Translations under genes and position numbers: made by a program
Notes under the pieces: generated by a model
Seen by the model: the letters and a program-made list of their open reading frames with translations, nothing else
What the model was told of the DNA's origin: nothing
The model's database searches: none
Assembly (NCBI GenBank): GCA_016186625.1
Contig: JACPLG010000008.1
Span: 80,689 to 144,688 of the forward strand
DNA: 64,000 nucleotides
Origin: Candidatus Levyibacteriota bacterium
GTDB lineage: Bacteria > Patescibacteriota > Microgenomatia > Levybacterales > UBA12049
Direction: 5' to 3'
Shown here: piece after piece, positions 31,129 to 52,866 of the stretch
Layout: every line of letters starts with the position of its first letter
How positions within the stretch are numbered: position 1 is the first letter of the stretch

Positions 31129-31776
31129 TCAGTCATCGATGTCGATTAGAGAATCAAAAAGCGCCGGGTCAATATCATTAGTTTCCTCGACAAAACTTTG
31201 ATAGTCTCTTTCTGGATTCGATCGCGCAAAATAAGAAAGAATAAAACCTGTATCACAAAAAACATGTTTTTCCCCATAAATATAGTTACAATAAGACGAA
31301 TATGGGTAAACTCTACATTCACACATGGAAAGTGGGAAAGGGTTTCGGTGAATATATTTTGACAGTTGCAGAAGATGCCCATCGCTTTCAATATACTTTG
31401 CTTTAAAACTTCCTTGAAACAGTGGTCCTACTCTATCGTACTTAGTATTGAAATACCTTGTATAACTGTCTGATAATTTTCTTAGAAAGTGTGTAATGCC
31501 ATTATCGGTTAATTGTTTGACTAGGAGATGAAAATGGTTAGGCATCAAGCAAAAACAAAAAATACTTACTAGTTCTGTTTGGCTGTCTACTTTCTTAAGT
31601 TTAACGATTCCCCTTCTGTAGTCAGATAGTTTCATGGGCTGAGGAGATTTTCGATAAAAGTCCAGAGTTTCTAAAAATCTAAGATAGTCCCACCTATCCA
31701 AAAAGATATCTCTTTTTTCCACACCTCTATTATAAATGTGGAAGAATCCGTCGGTGATAAAAGGAGGATTCTTCAT
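31129..31776 (-). CDS. REP-associated tyrosine transposase (RAYT; IS200/IS605 TnpA-like HUH Y1 transposase), family 1
   Basis: HIYNRGV, MPNHFHLLV (HUH), YIHRNP (catalytic Tyr); flanked by REP-1 copies on both sides. Confidence 0.8.
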   Translation of the reverse strand: MKNPPFITDGFFHIYNRGVEKRDIFLDRWDYLRFLETLDFYRKSPQPMKLSDYRRGIVKLKKVDSQTELVSIFCFCLMPNHFHLLVKQLTDNGITHFLRKLSDSYTRYFNTKYDRVGPLFQGSFKAKYIESDGHLLQLSKYIHRNPFPLSMCECRVYPYSSYCNYIYGEKHVFCDTGFILSYFARSNPERDYQSFVEETNDIDPALFDSLIDIDD

Positions 31777-37917: not shown

Positions 37918-38580
37918 ATGCCAAGAAGGAGATTTGTTTTAGCTACCAATGAAACTTACCACATATATAACAGGTCTGTTGCTAAGGAGTCGATATTTTC
38001 TTCAGCTACTTGTTTAAACAAGATAATCGAGATATCAGACTATTATCGATACCATCAAGAGCTTAGGCTGTCTAAGTTTAAAAAATTACCCGTTGATCAG
38101 AAAAAGAGCTATTTAGATTCGATTAAGAACAGGGAGAAACTTGTAGACATCTATTCATTTGCTTTTATGCCTAATCACTACCATTTCTTATTGAAACAAC
38201 TGGTCGATAATGGAATCGTAAATTTTATTTCTAATTTTCAAAATAGTTTTGCTAAATACTTTAATATAAAAAATGATCGAAACGGTGCTTTATTTCTGAA
38301 CCCCTTTAAAGGAAAAAGAATAGAGTCTGAAGACCAGTTTGTTCATGTCTCAAGATATATTCACCTAAATCCTGTCACTTCATACTTGGTTGAGTTTAAA
38401 GACTTACCAGATTATCCTTGGACTTCTTTTAGAATCTACCATTACGGTTTAAATTTATTTGTAAATACTAAGCTGATACTGGAGAGTTTTAAATCCATAA
38501 AGAGTTATTACAATTTTGTGGAAGATCAAGTAGATTATCAAAGAAGTCTTGCTTTAATAAAGGATTTAGTTCTTGAGTGA
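37918..38580 (+). CDS. REP-associated tyrosine transposase (RAYT), family 2
   Basis: HIYNRSV, MPNHYHFLL (HUH), YIHLNP (Tyr); flanked by inverted REP-2 copies. Confidence 0.8.
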   Translation: MPRRRFVLATNETYHIYNRSVAKESIFSSATCLNKIIEISDYYRYHQELRLSKFKKLPVDQKKSYLDSIKNREKLVDIYSFAFMPNHYHFLLKQLVDNGIVNFISNFQNSFAKYFNIKNDRNGALFLNPFKGKRIESEDQFVHVSRYIHLNPVTSYLVEFKDLPDYPWTSFRIYHYGLNLFVNTKLILESFKSIKSYYNFVEDQVDYQRSLALIKDLVLE

Positions 38581-39392: not shown

Positions 39393-39467
39393 GGTGGATG
39401 TAGCTCAGTGGTAGAGCTCCTGGTTGTGGTCCAGGTGGCCGCGGGTTCGATCCCCGTCATCCACCCA
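39393..39467 (+). tRNA. tRNA-His (anticodon GTG) with G(-1)
   Basis: gGTGGATGTAGCTCAGTGGTAGAGCTCCTGGTTGTGGTCCAGGTGGCCGCGGGTTCGATCCCCGTCATCCACCCA. Confidence 0.8.
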
Positions 39468-39898
39468 TTCGACTCACTTCGTTCGCTCATGGCTGTAAGC
39501 CGGAGTCGAATGTCCTGAGTTCATCGAAGGACAAAATGTCTTTTTTCATTTACATTCTCCGTAGCTCATCCAATCAACTATATATTGGACAAACGAATAA
39601 TTTTGAAAATCGGACAAAGCAACATATTGCAAAAGATTGTAAAGCAGCGAAATTTACTAAAGATCATGAAGACTTCAAGCCCGTTTATAAAGAGGAGTAC
39701 CCTACAAGATTAGAAGCAATGAGAAGAGAAGCACAGATTAAAAAATGGTCAAGAGCAAAAAAAGAAGCGCTTATTGCAGGAAATTTGAAAGAACTTAAAA
39801 ATTTAAGCAAAAAGAAATAGTAAGTGAGATCATCGAGCCTGAGCCTGAGGTTCACTTCAGAGTCGAAGACCTGTCGAACCATCCCCGTCATCCACCCA
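39468..39898 (+). mobile_element. Minimal tRNA-integrated cassette: GIY-YIG nuclease gene bounded by a 16-bp direct repeat of the tRNA-His 3' end and ATTCGAC.../...GTCGAACC termini
   Basis: CCCCGTCATCCACCCA at 39453-39468 and again at 39883-39898; left end ATTCGACTCACTTCGTTCGCTCA, right end GAGTCGAAGACCTGTCGAACCAT. Confidence 0.55.
39536..39820 (+). CDS. GIY-YIG nuclease-domain protein (UPF0213/YhbQ-like)
   Basis: FFIYILRSSSNQLYIGQTNNFENRTKQH matches the GIY-YIG core. Confidence 0.7.
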   Translation: MSFFIYILRSSSNQLYIGQTNNFENRTKQHIAKDCKAAKFTKDHEDFKPVYKEEYPTRLEAMRREAQIKKWSRAKKEALIAGNLKELKNLSKKK

Positions 39899-40068: not shown

Positions 40069-41019
40069 TCAATAACCTAAGTGTTTACCAAATGTAGTTG
40101 TGTCAATTGGTAAACTGGCTACATATTGGTTTATGCAATATCTTAAAGTTTCTCTCTTATTTTGCCATCTATGGTTATTGCCCAGTTTCTTAGCTATTTG
40201 TTTCTCAAAAGAAGTTTCCCATATGGCCTTAAGCAATACCATATCATCTGTAAAACTTGATAGATCCTCTAACTCAAGATCGCTGGCCGTAGCATCAATT
40301 GTATCTAAATATTTTCTTATCTGTTTTTCACTGAAATCATAAGCTAACTGACTAGTACCATCAGGTGCTGTGAAGTTCCAGAATCGGCCAGTGAAAGGGC
40401 TAGTGATTACATCGAATCCCACAGGAGCGATAAACTTATGCTCAAAATCCATGACTCCACCTGGCAACATATTAAATGGTCCTAAATCACCGTGCGTTAA
40501 AACTTGTGGTAGATTGACGACTCTTGCCTCTGCCATAGCGAATGCTTTCTCGAGATCTTCTATGCTAAGGTCAGGATTTTCCTCGATAACATTATCTAAG
40601 TTAACCCCGTCACGCAAATTACCTTGTTCTCTAAATGAAGGAGCAGATTTTAACTGTGCAACTAAAAATAGACTTGCAATACGGCAGTATTGATCAAAGG
40701 AAGTCTCTTCTATGACGCCGGTGGCCGCGTATTCTTCCCTAAATATATCGCCAAAAGTTCTAGTGCCTAGAGAGGATTCGGTAAAATAGTATGTATCAGC
40801 ATCAATTTCTCCATCACTTAATACTTCTGGAGTAGGAAATCCCATATCATGCAGAGTTCTTGCAAACTCTACTTCATCACGGATACTATTCTTAGACCCA
40901 GTTTTTAAATATCTGTCGCCATAGATAGATAGGTAGACAATTCCTTGACTTATAGTACGTGCCTTTACAAAATGCCAATCAGTATTCTCGAGTTGCAGCT
41001 GTTGTTTTAATACTTCCAT
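40069..41019 (-). CDS. Aminoglycoside/choline-kinase-like phosphotransferase (APH fold)
   Basis: THGDLGPFNML (Brenner motif HGDxxxxN) and VMDFEH (D-F/W-E metal-binding motif). Confidence 0.7.
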   Translation of the reverse strand: MEVLKQQLQLENTDWHFVKARTISQGIVYLSIYGDRYLKTGSKNSIRDEVEFARTLHDMGFPTPEVLSDGEIDADTYYFTESSLGTRTFGDIFREEYAATGVIEETSFDQYCRIASLFLVAQLKSAPSFREQGNLRDGVNLDNVIEENPDLSIEDLEKAFAMAEARVVNLPQVLTHGDLGPFNMLPGGVMDFEHKFIAPVGFDVITSPFTGRFWNFTAPDGTSQLAYDFSEKQIRKYLDTIDATASDLELEDLSSFTDDMVLLKAIWETSFEKQIAKKLGNNHRWQNKRETLRYCINQYVASLPIDTTTFGKHLGY

Positions 41020-41224: not shown

Positions 41225-42385
41225 CTACATTAAACTGAGGAGGTTGGGCCTTATTCCAAATGTTGAATAAAGATCGTTGAGCGTCATTTCGGGATGTTTT
41301 TTACGCCGAGACTCCGACTCAGAAAGTATTTTACGCATTGAACTCTCCTCACCCGATATAGCTTCCGCAACTCTGGGCGTAGACATGGATCCATCGATGA
41401 AAGACTGTAAAACACTTTGGACATTCACAAAACCCTCCGACTGCAACCAAACTTCCTCTATCAGGGAGCGAACAATTTTTCTAAGTACGTACGAGTGCCT
41501 CTTATTTCCGGGCATTAACCCTTCTGCTGTTAGCTCATCTATCACGCGACAAAGATTCGCCATGTAATGAGCATCCAAATCAGAGATATGACCAAATGTA
41601 CCCTTGAATTGCTCCGCTAGCTTTCTCCATGGCATCAATGAAAATTTATTTTCACCTGTTAGTGCACGTTCAACCCTGCCCATGCCCAGGCCCACATCAA
41701 ATGCCGTGTGTTCAAAAGGAACTACTGATGTGCCTTCGGAAATTCCATCAATGTCCACAATCCTACCAATCTGCAGACAATCAGATAAGTCTTGATTCTG
41801 ATCATAGCCTTCTGAAGCGAACCACGCGATTACCCCACGCCCGTGCAGGTCCCCTTCTCCAAAGCTCCATTCATGCTTCAATACTTCAGGGTCTTCAATG
41901 ATACGAACCTGATTTGGGTCTAGAGAGGCAGACCTTAGTGCCGACTCTAGAGGATGACCTCCAATTGTAGAGAATATTAGGTTCTTTTTGTTAAGCCCCA
42001 GTGCACTTAACATATCAACAAAATATTCCATTGCCTTATCATGACTCACATTGAAAAGACCGCTGCCAAGCATGTGAAATAATGATGTATAATTTATATC
42101 TACACGAGCAGTGTCAAAAGTGCCGCCAGTTCCACCTAAGCGAAGACATTTTTGTATAAAAGCAAAATTGGAAGGGGTCGTATCACCGGAGAACATCGAT
42201 TTGAACGGAGTGATTGTCGCATTAGTAAACAAAACTGTGGGATCGTCAATGACTAATGGGAAAGAATCGTGCGTCGTAAATCCATTGTCTTGATGATATT
42301 CCAGAAATGAAGATTTTATAGATTCTACTACAGCGACTTCTTTATCTTGATGATATTCCTGAGGTGAAGATTTTATAGATTCCAT
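41225..42385 (-). CDS. Standalone alanyl-tRNA synthetase catalytic-domain paralog (no editing or C-Ala domains)
   Basis: DPTVLFTNATITPFK, IQKCLRLGG...TSLFHMLGSGLFN, DVGLGMGRVERAL, HSYVLRKIVRSL align to AlaRS residues about 1-370 (LLFTNAGMNQFK, CVRAGG...HTFFEMLGNFSFG, DTGMGLERI, RGYVLRRIIRRA). Confidence 0.7.
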   Translation of the reverse strand: MESIKSSPQEYHQDKEVAVVESIKSSFLEYHQDNGFTTHDSFPLVIDDPTVLFTNATITPFKSMFSGDTTPSNFAFIQKCLRLGGTGGTFDTARVDINYTSLFHMLGSGLFNVSHDKAMEYFVDMLSALGLNKKNLIFSTIGGHPLESALRSASLDPNQVRIIEDPEVLKHEWSFGEGDLHGRGVIAWFASEGYDQNQDLSDCLQIGRIVDIDGISEGTSVVPFEHTAFDVGLGMGRVERALTGENKFSLMPWRKLAEQFKGTFGHISDLDAHYMANLCRVIDELTAEGLMPGNKRHSYVLRKIVRSLIEEVWLQSEGFVNVQSVLQSFIDGSMSTPRVAEAISGEESSMRKILSESESRRKKHPEMTLNDLYSTFGIRPNLLSLM

Positions 42386-42509
42386 TACAGCGACTCCTTA
42401 GATGCTGGGCAAGTTTTATAAAAGTACAGTATAGTATCATAATGAACTAATCTTGTAAAATAATTAAAACTACCTTCATTAAATGAGAACAGACCATGAA
42501 GGGTATCTA

Positions 42510-43142
42510 TCACTCGTGATCGCCCAGTCTCCATACGTTACCGCGGCCCACTTTATGCTCACCCGTTGAGTCTATACGCAAGGCAGCACCCTCGCCAATT
42601 GCCACAAAAGGGCATGTGCCAACCTTATGAAAACTTGTCCATGCAGACCTGGCTTTATCGAAGGAATCTTGATTTGCGTGCACCTGCACACAAGCAGAAA
42701 CGATCCCCCAACCTTTCCTCACCTCAAATACGTCGCTACCTTCGTGAATATACCAAGAAGATAGAGCCTGAGCCCCGGCGCTCATTCCAGCAATGTGAGC
42801 ACCTCGCTCAAAAGCCGCAATTAAAAGCCCCACAATGTCCCATTCAGAAAATAATCGCATTAACTGATCAGTATCACCACCACCTAAATATATCACCGAT
42901 GAAGACTTGATCGCATTGATCGCATACTCACGACCCTTTTTCTCCGTAGGGACCAAAACCTTAAATTTATCGCCAAAAACAGATGTAATGGAATCAGAAT
43001 ATGCAACGCTATCTTGTGCCGCAAAGCCAAAAAAAGCGAAGGTAGATCCTTCAGACGCAAGAGACTTTATATCCTCATCGATCTGATATGTCTCACCGTC
43101 TCTAATTTCTCCACCACCGATTAAATAAATTGAACCTATCAT
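42510..43142 (-). CDS. Peptidase S51 family protein (dipeptidase E/cyanophycinase-like)
   Basis: HIAGMSAGAQAL (GxSAG nucleophile), downstream His/Glu candidates; 210 aa. Confidence 0.65.
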   Translation of the reverse strand: MIGSIYLIGGGEIRDGETYQIDEDIKSLASEGSTFAFFGFAAQDSVAYSDSITSVFGDKFKVLVPTEKKGREYAINAIKSSSVIYLGGGDTDQLMRLFSEWDIVGLLIAAFERGAHIAGMSAGAQALSSWYIHEGSDVFEVRKGWGIVSACVQVHANQDSFDKARSAWTSFHKVGTCPFVAIGEGAALRIDSTGEHKVGRGNVWRLGDHE

Positions 43143-44626
43143 ATCGACATACGAATCAAAGGATTTTTATTAGAGCGTATATTTGCGCTAGACTGACACA
43201 CCCCACTCATTAGCTTAACTGAAACAGCATGAGTATCAATATTTGATTTCACATCACTTATATTGATTCGTCCAAGGATAAACTCAATAAACTCACGTAT
43301 AACACGATCTTTGGCTTTCTCCCCCGTAAGTCCAGTAACGTCAGCCTGCTGTTCTAGATCACGAGCAGATATCCTAAAGAAGGCTTTGCCTTCGCCAAAC
43401 ATACCAACATTGCGAAATACGTATATTTCAAAATGATTGTTACCGCCAACCTCAAATTCATCGGAATTATCAACATCATGCTGATGCTTGGATTGATAGT
43501 TATGAATCTGAATACACTGAAAAGGACCTTGTTGAATAATAAATTGCTGATGCTTTACCCTACCATTGCCTTTATACAGATCAGCATTTGGCGCAGCCCA
43601 TGAACGCCTCGAGAAGCTACTGTGCATCAAATTCACAGAGATATTGCAAATATTCTCACCGCTCCTAAGCAGCCGAATAATGTTAAACGAATCCACCTCG
43701 CCATAATCAGAAATTTTGTCTAGGTATTGCTTCGAAGAAAGACCAGTCCGCTCGTAATCAGATCCAAAATATCTAATGTAGTCTTCCTCATTTAAATTAA
43801 GAATGAGTCCACTCGGAGTCAATGGAGATGAAAAAATCTCTAATTGATCAGGTTGCTTATCATCAACAAGGCCAGACTGATACATTTGCCAGGCCATATC
43901 GAACAAGTGATACCCACTAAATGCTACTTTTCCAAAACCATCCTTAAGACCATGAGATTCTTGGGTTATTACCTCCTGCGGAAACCTCCACGAACCATCA
44001 GCATGCATAATCTGCATCGACGTTACGGGTACATTAAATTTTTTCGCTGTCCCTGAAATCAGTTCTCGGACTTTATCGAAGCCATACTCGTATCTTCGCT
44101 GAACATCTATAGAAAAAATGGTTGGTTTGTCGGCCAGATGCAACTTGTACAGATCCAGAAGTTCACTGTAATCATCAATTAAACCCATAGCTTGAGAACG
44201 ATCAACACTGATCGCCTTCCTAGCTGTAATGGGCTTATCCATAAGAATATGCAACCCTTTGCGAAGAGCCCATTCGGCATATGCCTTATGAGCTGTAGGC
44301 TCTGTAGCAATCACAACCCCTTGTATATCAAATTTATTAACCAAAGCATCTAACATCGCCCTAGAGTGATCAGGAATGCCATCAGCTGTATCAAAAGAGT
44401 CAAGATATAACATCTCCAAATCATACCTCTGATCTTTAAGGTATGAATCCACAGTATCCATTTGCCGCTTCAGATCTACAGCTGCAATTAAGCGTATAGG
44501 ATAATCTGCAGCCAACCTAAAAAAGGCAGGGACATAGATCCGCTTCGCATGAGGCCCAACTCCAATTAGCAGTAAATTTACAGTTTTCATATTGTTATCT
44601 TTTATCATATTATCAATCTTATACAC
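43139..44626 (-). CDS. Gfo/Idh/MocA-family NAD(P)-dependent oxidoreductase-like protein
   Basis: VNLLLIGVGPHAKRIYVPAF (Rossmann), GVVIATEPTAHKAYAEWALRKGLHILMDKP (EKP-type motif). Its 3' end overlaps the start of the S51 gene by 4 nt. Confidence 0.55.
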   Translation of the reverse strand: MYKIDNMIKDNNMKTVNLLLIGVGPHAKRIYVPAFFRLAADYPIRLIAAVDLKRQMDTVDSYLKDQRYDLEMLYLDSFDTADGIPDHSRAMLDALVNKFDIQGVVIATEPTAHKAYAEWALRKGLHILMDKPITARKAISVDRSQAMGLIDDYSELLDLYKLHLADKPTIFSIDVQRRYEYGFDKVRELISGTAKKFNVPVTSMQIMHADGSWRFPQEVITQESHGLKDGFGKVAFSGYHLFDMAWQMYQSGLVDDKQPDQLEIFSSPLTPSGLILNLNEEDYIRYFGSDYERTGLSSKQYLDKISDYGEVDSFNIIRLLRSGENICNISVNLMHSSFSRRSWAAPNADLYKGNGRVKHQQFIIQQGPFQCIQIHNYQSKHQHDVDNSDEFEVGGNNHFEIYVFRNVGMFGEGKAFFRISARDLEQQADVTGLTGEKAKDRVIREFIEFILGRINISDVKSNIDTHAVSVKLMSGVCQSSANIRSNKNPLIRMSI

Positions 44627-44673: not shown

Positions 44674-45561
44674 ATGAGATCCTTTAAGTTACAAATTAGG
44701 AGCAATGGACAGAATATGAACCACATAGAGAATCGAGAGAATATGAACCACATAGAGAATCAATGGGGAGTTGAACGTCTGAGTCCAGATAACTCAGCCG
44801 AAGCATGTGAGCTCCTACCTGCACTCGCATCAAACGAAATTGCAGCTATTCAAATTGCTCAATTCTTAGGTAGACAAGACTTGGATATCGTCATTCAGAA
44901 CATGAGCCGACAAAATATACAATGGTACGAAAACAGAGAGTTCCAACAGGGTAGAATTGGCATAAACGCCACAGGATTTGGTTATGAATCTGGCGGCAAG
45001 CAAAGATACTTTGACCTCACCCCAGAAGCCGCGAAGGTTCGAGATGAAATATTTAAGGGAGCTTCAAACCCAATTGATAAAATTATTAAATTCTTTTCAT
45101 CAAATGGATATAATGCATCCATAGCGACTGAACCAGGCATGCAAAATGCGCAGTACTTCGCAGGCCTCATTAGAGCAATGGGAGCAAAAAGCACGCTGCA
45201 TTTTGACTATGCTCCAAACCAGCTTCCAGGCTGGAGCGTCTCTGATGCAGATGAACAATATGGTCTCGTTTTATACCTTCAGATGCCAACTGAAGGAGGG
45301 GAATTAACTGTCTACAATCGCCCATGGCAGCCAGAAGATGAGTCCCACAACAATGATATTGGACAAAAGGGAAGATACGGATTCGCAGAGGATTTCCTAG
45401 AAGACACACCGCATGCCACAATATCGCCTAAAGCGGGAGACTTAGTAGTATTTAAAACACGCAACTTCCATCAAGTAGCGGCTATCAACTCAGATAAACC
45501 AAGATTAGGCCTTACCACCTTCATGACATTGAAAGATGGGTCGCTATCGTTGTGGAGCTAA
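44674..45561 (+). CDS. 2-oxoglutarate/Fe(II)-dependent oxygenase-like protein
   Basis: LHFDYAP (HxD), GGELTVYN, TRNFHQV (distal His). In-frame 24-bp tandem duplication at the N-terminus (MNHIENRENMNHIEN). Confidence 0.5.
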   Translation: MRSFKLQIRSNGQNMNHIENRENMNHIENQWGVERLSPDNSAEACELLPALASNEIAAIQIAQFLGRQDLDIVIQNMSRQNIQWYENREFQQGRIGINATGFGYESGGKQRYFDLTPEAAKVRDEIFKGASNPIDKIIKFFSSNGYNASIATEPGMQNAQYFAGLIRAMGAKSTLHFDYAPNQLPGWSVSDADEQYGLVLYLQMPTEGGELTVYNRPWQPEDESHNNDIGQKGRYGFAEDFLEDTPHATISPKAGDLVVFKTRNFHQVAAINSDKPRLGLTTFMTLKDGSLSLWS

Positions 45562-45575
45562 CTACACACATTTAC

Positions 45576-46409
45576 TTACCAAAGATCTGACTCGAAAAAA
45601 CTGCGAAACTTCCTCATAACCTCTTTAGTAAAGGGCCCAACTGATCCGTCCCCCACGGGAACGTCATTCAACTTGGTCACGGGCATTATGTCCATTCCGG
45701 TAGCGGTGATAAACAGTTCCGACGCACCTAGTAGCTCCTGTACAGAAAAGTCACAAGCCTCAGCCCGAACAGAAAGTTGTAATTTATTAATTATGATATC
45801 GCGCGTAATCCCCTCCAGAATCCCTGTTTTAGGAGTCACAAGAGAACCATCTATTGCTGCAAATACATTACTCATCGTTCCTTCGCGTACCATACCTTCG
45901 GAATGATAGATAACCTCATCTATGTCATTAGGGATAGAATTGAATTGACGAATCGCCTCTATGTAATTATTCGTTTTGGCTTGTGGTTTATACCTTTGAA
46001 ATTCGGAAAGTAAAACATGGACTCCGTTAGCATAATCTTCAGAGGGGCGCGGAATACGCTGGTCAACCATAATAACTATTGTAGGTATTTTCGTTGTAGA
46101 GAGTGTCATTGAGGGCCCACCAGAAATAGTGACACGCATAACCTTTTCGCCCTCAACAGACTCATTCGCTTTAAGTGTTTGTACCACCCACTCAGTAATC
46201 AGCTCTTTTGGCCAAGGCAAATTCAGTGATATTTCCTGACAAGATCGATAAAGCCTATCTATATGTTTTTCTAACATAAACGGACGCCCCTTTGAAGTCA
46301 TCATAAACTCAAAAACAGCGTAGCCACGCGAATAGCCTAAATCACGTGGAGATATAAGCAGATCATCTTCATTGACAAGTTGACCATTTAAGAAATGCAC
46401 ACTCTTCAT
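45576..46409 (-). CDS. Class IV (fold type IV) PLP aminotransferase (BCAT/DAAT/ADCL family)
   Basis: AKTNNYIEAI (catalytic Lys..NYL), EGTMSNVFAA, GILEGITR. Confidence 0.7.
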   Translation of the reverse strand: MKSVHFLNGQLVNEDDLLISPRDLGYSRGYAVFEFMMTSKGRPFMLEKHIDRLYRSCQEISLNLPWPKELITEWVVQTLKANESVEGEKVMRVTISGGPSMTLSTTKIPTIVIMVDQRIPRPSEDYANGVHVLLSEFQRYKPQAKTNNYIEAIRQFNSIPNDIDEVIYHSEGMVREGTMSNVFAAIDGSLVTPKTGILEGITRDIIINKLQLSVRAEACDFSVQELLGASELFITATGMDIMPVTKLNDVPVGDGSVGPFTKEVMRKFRSFFESDLW

Positions 46410-52823: not shown

Positions 52824-52866
52824 TTACACCCCGGGTGTGGATTTAGCTTTACACCCCAGGAGTTTG
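52824..52866. repeat. REP-2 copy downstream of C39-like gene
   Basis: TTTACACCCCGGGTGTGGATTTAGCTTTACACCCCAGGA. Confidence 0.65.

Follow-up and report, generated by a model that had tools for sequence, protein, structure and literature searches.

What might a truncated alanyl-tRNA synthetase (AlaRS) paralogue do among genes for small-molecule tailoring enzymes? The question is raised by a gene in the 64,000-nucleotide stretch of DNA that we analyzed (contig JACPLG010000008.1 of Candidatus Levyibacteriota bacterium; hereafter the window). Its product, the AlaRS-like protein, is recorded in identical form as a hypothetical protein of a Candidatus Levybacteria metagenome-assembled genome (MAG) (MBI2621620.1, locus tag HYW63_03195). 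An earlier note on this DNA had described it as an AlaRS paralogue reduced to the aminoacylation domain and had taken it for an amino-acid ligase recruited from translation. In our judgment there is an even chance that it is a translation-independent AlaRS paralogue that carries out aminoacyl transfer within an accessory biosynthetic module conserved in a few Patescibacteria, which are ultra-small bacteria. Most likely, the enzyme attaches an amino acid to a small molecule and does not serve protein synthesis. The best reading, by analogy, is that it caps an amino-sugar or nucleoside product in the manner of AcmF, an AlaRS-derived enzyme of ascamycin biosynthesis, with the donor and the acceptor both presumed.

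An AlaRS homologue with an altered active site

The 386-codon reading frame is without interruption, and its product matches the Pfam class II AlaRS profile PF01411 (E=6.4e-22, 78.2 bits against a cut-off of 30.3 bits), with residues 23-352 aligned to profile positions 2-360 of 552. The top PDB sequence matches are AlaRS catalytic fragments (1riq, E=1.4e-17). An AlphaFold2 model, built from an input alignment of 14 family sequences, reached a mean predicted local distance difference test score (pLDDT) of 86.8 and a predicted template-modelling (TM) score of 0.84. The top Foldseek matches of the model are all AlaRS fragments (5knn, 1riq and 3hxu; E ~1e-20), on which it superposes with TM scores of 0.72-0.75. 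By the Pfam match, the PDB search and the confident model, the protein is an AlaRS homologue, and the assignment in the earlier note thus holds under the profile hidden Markov model (HMM) test that the note had set.

The domain loss described in the note stands in part. Neither the editing domain (tRNA_SAD) nor the C-Ala domain was found in the protein, which has no PF07973 or PF02272 match in Pfam. The helical tRNA-recognition domain, which the note had counted among the losses, is mostly present, because the alignment with E. coli AlaRS runs from protein residue 21 (E. coli residue 6) to the final residue (E. coli residue 412) and includes both the acceptor-stem helix and the 'DTYGFP'-type motif. 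The helix is found as 'PGNKRHSYVLRKIVRS', with the motif 'P(G/S)NK..YVLRK.IR' nearly unaltered, and the second motif takes the form 'STFGIRP'. The description 'aminoacylation domain only' therefore has to be given up. About 130 residues of the tRNA-recognition domain are strongly conserved in the family, the core of which measures 366-370 amino acids once an N-terminal 19-residue extension is set aside. Purifying selection acts on the gene, as its ratio of nonsynonymous to synonymous substitution rates is 0.23 and 0.10 against two orthologues. A free-standing editing protein of the AlaX type is ruled out, since the tRNA_SAD domain with its HxxxH/CxxxH zinc motif is absent from the Pfam matches.

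To place the protein relative to canonical enzymes, we compared residues with 31 canonical or mini AlaRS, in which 54 positions within E. coli residues 1-412 are at least 93% invariant. The window subfamily, that is, the window protein and its closer relatives, retains 25 of the 54. Among the published alanine-pocket residues of AlaRS (M43, R69, W170, N212, D235 and G237; PMC12467997, a secondary source), R69, W170, D235 and G237 are kept and two are changed (M43I and N212R); R242 and F90 are also kept, together with the motif-3 Arg. Five of the changes fall at positions invariant in all 31 comparison sequences (M43I, E183I/V, E209Q, N212R and E241G/S), H86Y and D400S are further changes, and G42 is lost as well. 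Of the two readers of the G3:U70 pair, Asn303 is kept (N294 in the window protein); in place of Asp400 the window protein has Ser, and its subfamily as a whole has Ser or Ala. The Arg of 'CLRLGG' and the alanine-binding Asp and Gly, the conservation of which the earlier note had made a point to check, are conserved as R82 (E. coli R69), D230 and G232 in the protein's own numbering, as is W173. In the whole family, the motif-2 R82, the stacking F103, the Arg of the motif-3 Gly-x-Gly-x-x-Arg (R237), D230 and G232 are invariant.

Could the protein nevertheless be the sole, essential alanine-charging enzyme of its organism, reduced or split as in other small genomes? Genomes of the Candidate Phyla Radiation (CPR) are reduced, the protein retains its catalytic fold as well as some of the tRNA-recognition domain, and no second alaS was found within the window, all of which would suit such a housekeeping role. 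Against it, the alaS equivalog models TIGR00344 (cut-off 457 bits) and NF002436 (cut-off 529 bits) give the protein 61.5 and 27.2 bits, respectively, and the changes at canonical-invariant residues include N212R and D400S. The control for these cut-offs is a 625-residue protein with an editing domain that adjoins the same kind of gene cluster in a Saccharibacteria locus (L026) and passes both, with 505 and 641 bits. In another locus (L012) the entire cluster is duplicated. The family is also rare. We found 119 relatives in a word-indexed search of 5.8 billion proteins, nearly all of 366-375 amino acids and from Patescibacteria. A profile search of 1.84 billion cluster representatives returned ~13 full-length clusters above 340 bits and a few other truncated forms at 190-220 bits, with canonical AlaRS of 800-900 amino acids at 187 bits or less. 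In GTDB, 13 of 185,579 species, each represented by one genome, carry the family; Saccharibacteria and further Patescibacteria make up most of them, and the window's own assembly is not among them. A phylogeny, as the earlier note had asked for, was built by neighbour joining; all 100 bootstraps separate the truncated family from canonical AlaRS, and all 100 also recover the window subfamily as a single clade. From this comparison we regard the gene as distinct from the housekeeping alaS. A sole-AlaRS role is very unlikely, because L026 has a genuine alaS and the family is rare among thousands of Patescibacteria species; for the window's own genome this verdict is carried over from L026 and from the rarity of the family.

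Three of the MAGs that bear the family (L018, L020 and L022) are labelled Pseudomonadales, Dormiibacterota and Bdellovibrionales, and their module proteins are 51-68% identical to those of Patescibacteria. These labels probably reflect mis-binning or mislabelling, and horizontal transfer is possible. No viral relatives of the AlaRS-like protein were found in IMG/VR contigs, and a phage-borne origin was rejected on that ground.

A five-gene module and its parallel in ascamycin biosynthesis

The AlaRS-like gene is the final member of a five-gene module (Table 1). The Pfam matches of its neighbours, an aminotransferase, an oxygenase, a dehydrogenase and an S51 peptidase, bear out the setting among tailoring enzymes that the earlier note had described. 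The module is whole in 11 of 12 further loci with this subfamily, the exception being L026, where the S51 gene is missing. Its gene order is constant or simply rearranged in MAGs labelled Levybacteria, Saccharibacteria and Nomurabacteria. The aminotransferase is closest in the PDB to D-amino-acid aminotransferases (7p8o and 1daa, E ~1e-33) and reaches no NCBIfam equivalog cut-off. The oxygenase, which has WelO5 among its PDB matches, carries an H-x-D triad within the motif 'STLHFDYAP', invariant in five orthologues. From this triad the enzyme is predicted to be a hydroxylase, and a halogenase was rejected because H-x-D stands in place of H-x-G/A. Orthologues of the dehydrogenase begin at MKTVN. 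Its AlphaFold2 model (pLDDT 87.2) has scyllo-inositol dehydrogenase, glucuronide 3-dehydrogenase, DgpA and levoglucosan dehydrogenase as top Foldseek matches, so that the predicted fold is that of sugar or cyclitol secondary-alcohol dehydrogenases. The S51 protein matches cyanophycinase and PepE weakly; five orthologues share its motifs GMSAG (Ser), VHA (His) and IGE (Glu), and its gene lies directly upstream of the AlaRS-like gene in nearly all loci.

Table 1. Coordinates of the module, of neighbouring features and of related genes (window positions unless a locus is named)
Feature	Positions	Strand	Description
AlaRS-like protein	41225..42385	minus	386 aa; 19-aa extension at the N terminus, then the aminoacylation domain and the greater part of the helical tRNA-recognition domain
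Peptidase S51 family protein (PepE/cyanophycinase-like)	42510..43142	minus	210 aa; Pfam PF03575, E=3.4e-20
Gfo/Idh/MocA-type NAD-dependent dehydrogenase	43139..44626	minus	~483 aa; Pfam PF01408; likely true start ATG 44590 (MKTVN...)
WelO5-family 2-oxoglutarate/Fe(II) oxygenase	44674..45561	plus	Pfam PF22814, E=1.7e-19; likely true start ATG 44743
Class IV (fold type IV) aminotransferase	45576..46409	minus	Pfam PF01063, E=5e-39; closest to D-amino-acid transaminases
APH-family small-molecule kinase	40069..41019	minus	Accessory; Pfam PF01636
Tandem duplication, period 57 bp	42281..42399	minus	2.1 copies; ribosome-binding site, start codon and first 14-15 codons of the AlaRS-like gene
Tandem duplication, 27 bp	44704..44761	plus	2.1 copies, 93% matches (Tandem Repeats Finder); start region of the oxygenase gene
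B-type mini-AlaRS	L020 2334-3629; L021 2693-4012; L010 3885-5207; L029 9161-10552
Distant truncated-family members	L008/L009 (8575-9732 in L008); L010/L011; L028; L029

The closest functional parallel that we found is in Streptomyces. AcmF of the ascamycin pathway has 370 amino acids (PMC4257720) and is an AlaRS-like transferase that moves Ala from Ala-tRNA(Ala) to the sulfamate nitrogen of a nucleoside seated in the old adenylate pocket, with the Ala-tRNA(Ala) supplied by AcmD, an AlaRS of the same cluster (PMC12945691). It has lost most of the residues for ATP and alanine activation (N to Q, D to E) and the Asp/Asn readers of G3:U70, and has kept the motif-2 Arg (PMC12945691). The gene acmE lies between acmD and acmF and encodes a hydrolase that strips the alanyl cap (PMC4257720). 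The AlaRS-like protein likewise consists of aminoacylation and tRNA-recognition domains only, at a length of ~370 residues without the N-terminal extension, and both proteins fall outside the canonical AlaRS clade. In both, the motif-2 Arg is kept and the Asn212 position and a G3:U70 reader are altered. The S51 gene directly upstream parallels acmE beside acmF, and the mini-AlaRS genes of four operons (L020, L021, L010 and L029) and the genuine alaS of L026 parallel AcmD. It is for these reasons, namely the same size and domain boundaries, the comparable sets of kept and lost residues, the upstream peptidase and the AlaRS copy in some operons, that an AcmF-like role is favoured. The suggestion in the earlier note that paralogues made of the catalytic fragment were without precedent is overtaken by AcmF, which was already characterised (PMC12945691, PMC4257720).

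The two systems also differ. Position 212 is Arg here and Gln in AcmF, and Asp235 is kept here and replaced by Glu in AcmF; in the window subfamily E183, E209 and E241 are lost and D235 is kept, D235E being found in most of the distant members of the truncated family. The hosts are Patescibacteria and Streptomyces, respectively, and where AcmF is accompanied by sulfamate and halogenation genes, the partners here are the dehydrogenase, the aminotransferase, the 2-oxoglutarate oxygenase and the S51 peptidase. Since the partner genes differ, the acceptor here would not be a nucleoside sulfamate.

The dehydrogenase fold and the aminotransferase together suggest an amine on a sugar-, cyclitol- or nucleoside-like ring. 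In the pathway we propose, the dehydrogenase would oxidise a ring hydroxyl on such a scaffold and the class IV aminotransferase would turn the resulting ketone into an amine or, alternatively, provide a D-amino acid. A hydroxyl would be introduced by the 2-oxoglutarate/Fe oxygenase, and the AlaRS-like protein would cap the scaffold amine with a small amino acid. The S51 serine peptidase might later take the cap off, a step that could serve activation, self-protection or recycling. On the AcmF analogy, the scaffold would be seated in the former adenylate pocket, and the donor would most likely be an aminoacyl-tRNA held on the retained tRNA-recognition domain and not an adenylate formed in situ. 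The donor, the acceptor, the order of the steps and the role of the peptidase are what we infer from the gene set and the AcmF parallel.

The chemistry favoured in the earlier note is different. An ATP-dependent amino-acid ligase would make an aminoacyl-adenylate and pass the acyl group straight to the amine or hydroxyl of a small molecule with no tRNA involved; one conceivable acceptor is a 3'-amino nucleoside in the A76 site, yielding a puromycin-like amide. The residues invariant across the family, both arginines and the stacking Phe included, would serve such a reaction, and E209Q with N212R could amount to an exchange of Mg2+ for Arg of a kind known in HisRS. Distant homologues of the dehydrogenase also sit with NUDIX genes and other aminoacyl-tRNA synthetase (aaRS)-type genes. 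Yet E183 and E209, acidic in 31 of 31 canonical or mini AlaRS, are lost, along with E241, H86 and G42. Moreover, the only characterised truncated AlaRS paralogue uses aminoacyl-tRNA, and the ~130 strongly conserved residues for tRNA recognition would be needless to an enzyme that works without tRNA. We consider the ligase unlikely, though ahead of the other alternatives. The claim of recruitment from translation thus survives in its first half: recruitment is supported by the conserved module, the failed alaS cut-offs, the separate clade and the alaS coexisting in L026, whereas for the word 'ligase' an aminoacyl-tRNA transferase is at least as likely by the AcmF analogy.

A second pathway lends some logic to the ligase as well. 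In aminonucleoside biosynthesis (puromycin, A201A and cystocin), the dehydrogenase Pur10 and the aminotransferase Pur4 precede the coupling enzyme Pur6 (PMC11641026), and the Gfo/Idh/MocA dehydrogenase and the aminotransferase of the module would follow the Pur10/Pur4 logic. The likeness is that a dehydrogenase and an aminotransferase equip a (nucleoside) sugar with an amine and that acylation by an amino acid follows, possibly via aminoacyl-tRNA. However, the aminotransferase is of fold type IV here and DegT-like in the Pur type, the coupling enzyme here is AlaRS-derived, and NUDIX (Pur7), phosphatase (Pur3) and Pur6 homologues lie outside the conserved module, which also counts against the ligase. 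Because the aminotransferase class differs and the other pur genes are absent, the module resembles the puromycin-type pathway and does not belong to it.

The loss of several catalytic-site invariants invites a third explanation, in which the protein is a non-catalytic paralogue, either a regulatory or substrate-binding subunit or an immunity decoy for an alanyl-adenylate-like toxin made by the module. Regulatory aaRS paralogues such as HisZ exist, and the additional AlaRS copies at some loci could point to a product that targets AlaRS. On the other side, R69, F90, W170, D235, G237 and the motif-3 Arg, which hold the amino acid and the nucleotide, are invariant under strong purifying selection; AcmF is catalytic in spite of comparable losses; and a partner enzyme like HisG is absent. 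Because the ligand-holding residues are conserved, this regulatory or decoy reading is less likely, and we rate it as improbable, well below the ligase though above the housekeeping role.

Several points weigh against AcmF-like capping. The parallel with AcmF was drawn from published descriptions of that enzyme, and the module of the window is without the second AlaRS gene that AcmD would lead one to look for. Neither an exporter nor a regulator is conserved alongside the module. The aminotransferase belongs to fold type IV, whereas amino sugars usually draw on the DegT type. The S51 family is known for the cleavage of Asp-X and of cyanophycin, and its fit to an alanyl cap is not obvious. Finally, the retained Asp235, which is Glu in AcmF, and the invariance of both class II ATP-binding arginines mean that adenylate chemistry, judged from the residues, may still take place.

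More broadly, aaRS paralogues have been recruited to metabolism from other parents, among them SerRS-like amino acid:[carrier protein] ligases, the IleRS-like SbzA, AsnA and EpmA/PoxA. Recruitment of this kind is also covered in PMC12945691. The AlaRS-like protein shares with these enzymes the reuse of an aaRS catalytic scaffold for acylation outside translation and differs from them in its parent; no carrier-protein gene and no target of the lysine or EF-P type is indicated here. The sole hint of a carrier domain was a weak DltC-like match (E=0.003) at residues 304-348 of the dehydrogenase; an amino acid:carrier-protein ligase system was rejected, as the conserved segment 'DSFNIIRLL' is a beta-strand of the Gfo C-terminal sheet in the AlphaFold2 model. 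With canonical AlaRS (alaS; TIGR00344/NF002436; the 461N-type catalytic fragment) the protein has in common the class II fold, motifs 2 and 3, the four kept pocket residues and the acceptor-stem helix. It departs from it in the stop at E. coli residue 412, in the six substitutions M43I, E183I/V, E209Q, N212R, E241G/S and D400S with scores far under the equivalog cut-offs, and in being a rare accessory gene within a tailoring operon.

Related loci, start-region duplications and flanks

Four loci (L020, L021, L010 and L029) carry in the same operon a 'B-type' mini-AlaRS of ~430-440 amino acids, with all canonical catalytic residues and the full tRNA-recognition domain and without the editing or C-Ala domain. 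These proteins score 316-455 bits on TIGR00344, the L010 copy falling barely below the cut-off, and form a 100%-supported clade nested within canonical AlaRS, near the Saccharibacteria alaS of L026. The gene lies upstream of the aminotransferase in L020 and L021; in L010 and L029 it forms a tandem with the gene of a distant truncated-family member. These distant members have 28-39% identity, keep N212 and D400, and mostly carry D235E. They belong to clusters of another make-up, with genes for an S66 (MccF-type) peptidase, for an Orn/DAP/Arg decarboxylase, for methyltransferases and for an AdoMet decarboxylase. Two dCTP-deaminase-like genes and a deoxyhypusine-synthase-like gene were also seen there, and in L010 and L029 the tandem of distant member and 440-residue mini-AlaRS is near a 368-residue core of a class II aaRS of the Asp/Lys/Asn type. 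As a whole, this gene set resembles microcin-C-like or polyamine-linked aminoacyl chemistry.

The family of long Gfo/Idh/MocA dehydrogenases, with 1099 matches, is ~10 times larger than the AlaRS-like family, and homologues at 47-51% identity occur in other clusters (L014, L016 and L015). In L014 and L016, the neighbours are a pyridoxal-phosphate enzyme resembling serine hydroxymethyltransferase, a thiamine-pyrophosphate enzyme, a short-chain dehydrogenase/reductase (SDR), two or three NUDIX genes and a radical SAM gene. The L015 cluster comprises a WelO5-like oxygenase, a class I LysRS-like gene, a gene for an 824-residue protein of the class II aaRS type, an LPG_synthase_C domain, a NUDIX gene and an ABC exporter. 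These distant contexts, with their NUDIX genes, aaRS-type genes and a domain of aminoacyl-tRNA-dependent transferases, would fit a nucleotide or aminoacyl theme and prove nothing.

The accessory genes around the module vary by locus and comprise an APH-type kinase, a YqcI/YcgG-like protein, an alpha/beta hydrolase, an FAD monooxygenase and an SDR. A constant core with changing tailoring genes is the usual pattern of specialised-metabolite clusters. The APH-type kinase follows the AlaRS-like gene in the window's closest relative too (homologous open reading frame [ORF] at 8829-9782 of L017), and an APH gene is near the Nomurabacteria module (5600-6517 of L005). The YqcI/YcgG-like protein, of ~220 residues with a weak match (E=2.7e-5, under the Pfam cut-off), is encoded at L017 6569-7231, L018 7308-7970, L024 7326-7997 and L021 9122-9772; in several relatives its gene sits between the S51 and AlaRS-like genes, or else after the latter, and it is not in the window. 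On contig CAYPUA010000018.1 (L012/L013/L022), the entire module occurs twice in tandem as a ~6.25-kb repeat, the two copies having identical HMM scores; the repeat reflects a recent duplication or else an artefact of assembly. Apart from generic 2-oxoglutarate and P-loop matches, the module proteins have no hit in PADLOC, and a defence system was rejected accordingly.

The start of the AlaRS-like gene is itself duplicated. The earlier note had seen a 42-bp in-frame repeat and attributed it to recent slippage; neither the period nor the age is borne out. Tandem Repeats Finder gives a period of 57 bp (19 codons) with 85% matches over 42281-42399. Identity in the best register is 50 of 57 bases, and a 42-bp period gives 19 of 71, no better than chance. 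The upstream copy has the Shine-Dalgarno sequence AAGGAG and an ATG, of which the downstream copy has only the degenerate forms AAGAAG and GTA. The resulting 19-residue extension is common to eleven relatives at 73-87% identity (including P0002-P0004, P0006-P0011 and P0013), which makes the duplication fixed and fairly old; other relatives of up to 87% identity lack it. The 27-bp duplication in the WelO5-like oxygenase gene yields 'NMNHIENRENMNHIENQ', and orthologues begin at the second Met. The window has six tandem repeats, two of which lie at the 5' ends of these two module genes.

Just past the APH end of the module are a tRNA-His gene (39394-39466) and a small GIY-YIG nuclease ORF (39536-39820). 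An att-like repeat of the tRNA-His 3' end was found nowhere else in the window and the base composition is not distinct, so that an island integrated at tRNA-His was rejected. A palindromic motif, ACACCCCGGGTGTG, occurs in 12 copies in the window against 0.04 expected by chance (290-328, 13321, 22179, 37859, 38613, 52318 and 52826-52864). Two of the copies flank an IS200-like Y1 transposase ORF at 37918-38580, an arrangement resembling REP elements with their RAYT, and a second Y1_Tnp-like ORF is at 31129-31776.

Implications for Patescibacteria

Patescibacteria are thought to be biosynthetically poor. This locus would place a known kind of enzyme, the AlaRS-derived transferases of secondary metabolism, in an unexpected lineage and with new partner enzymes. 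A bolder conjecture, which we hold to be doubtful, is that some Patescibacteria possess a family of small clusters centred on AlaRS-derived enzymes and make with them translation inhibitors, puromycin- or ascamycin-like, in the form of amino sugars or aminonucleosides with an aminoacyl cap, each cluster having a dedicated uncapping peptidase (S51 or S66). The active site of the window subfamily would then have been rebuilt for a new acceptor through the E209Q and N212R exchange of Mg2+ for Arg, and the product would be a new class of Trojan-horse antibiotics from uncultured episymbionts.

If AcmF-like capping is correct, this chemistry would extend from a single Streptomyces pathway to a distinct, deep-branching family in uncultured Patescibacteria, and the product would presumably be new, as the partner enzymes differ. 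The module, compact at five genes, would be among the few defined specialised-metabolite operons in CPR bacteria. The recurrent association between an AlaRS-like gene and a serine peptidase gene (for S51 in the window, S66 among its relatives and AcmE in the ascamycin cluster) may then serve as a simple genome-mining rule for aminoacyl-capped prodrugs.

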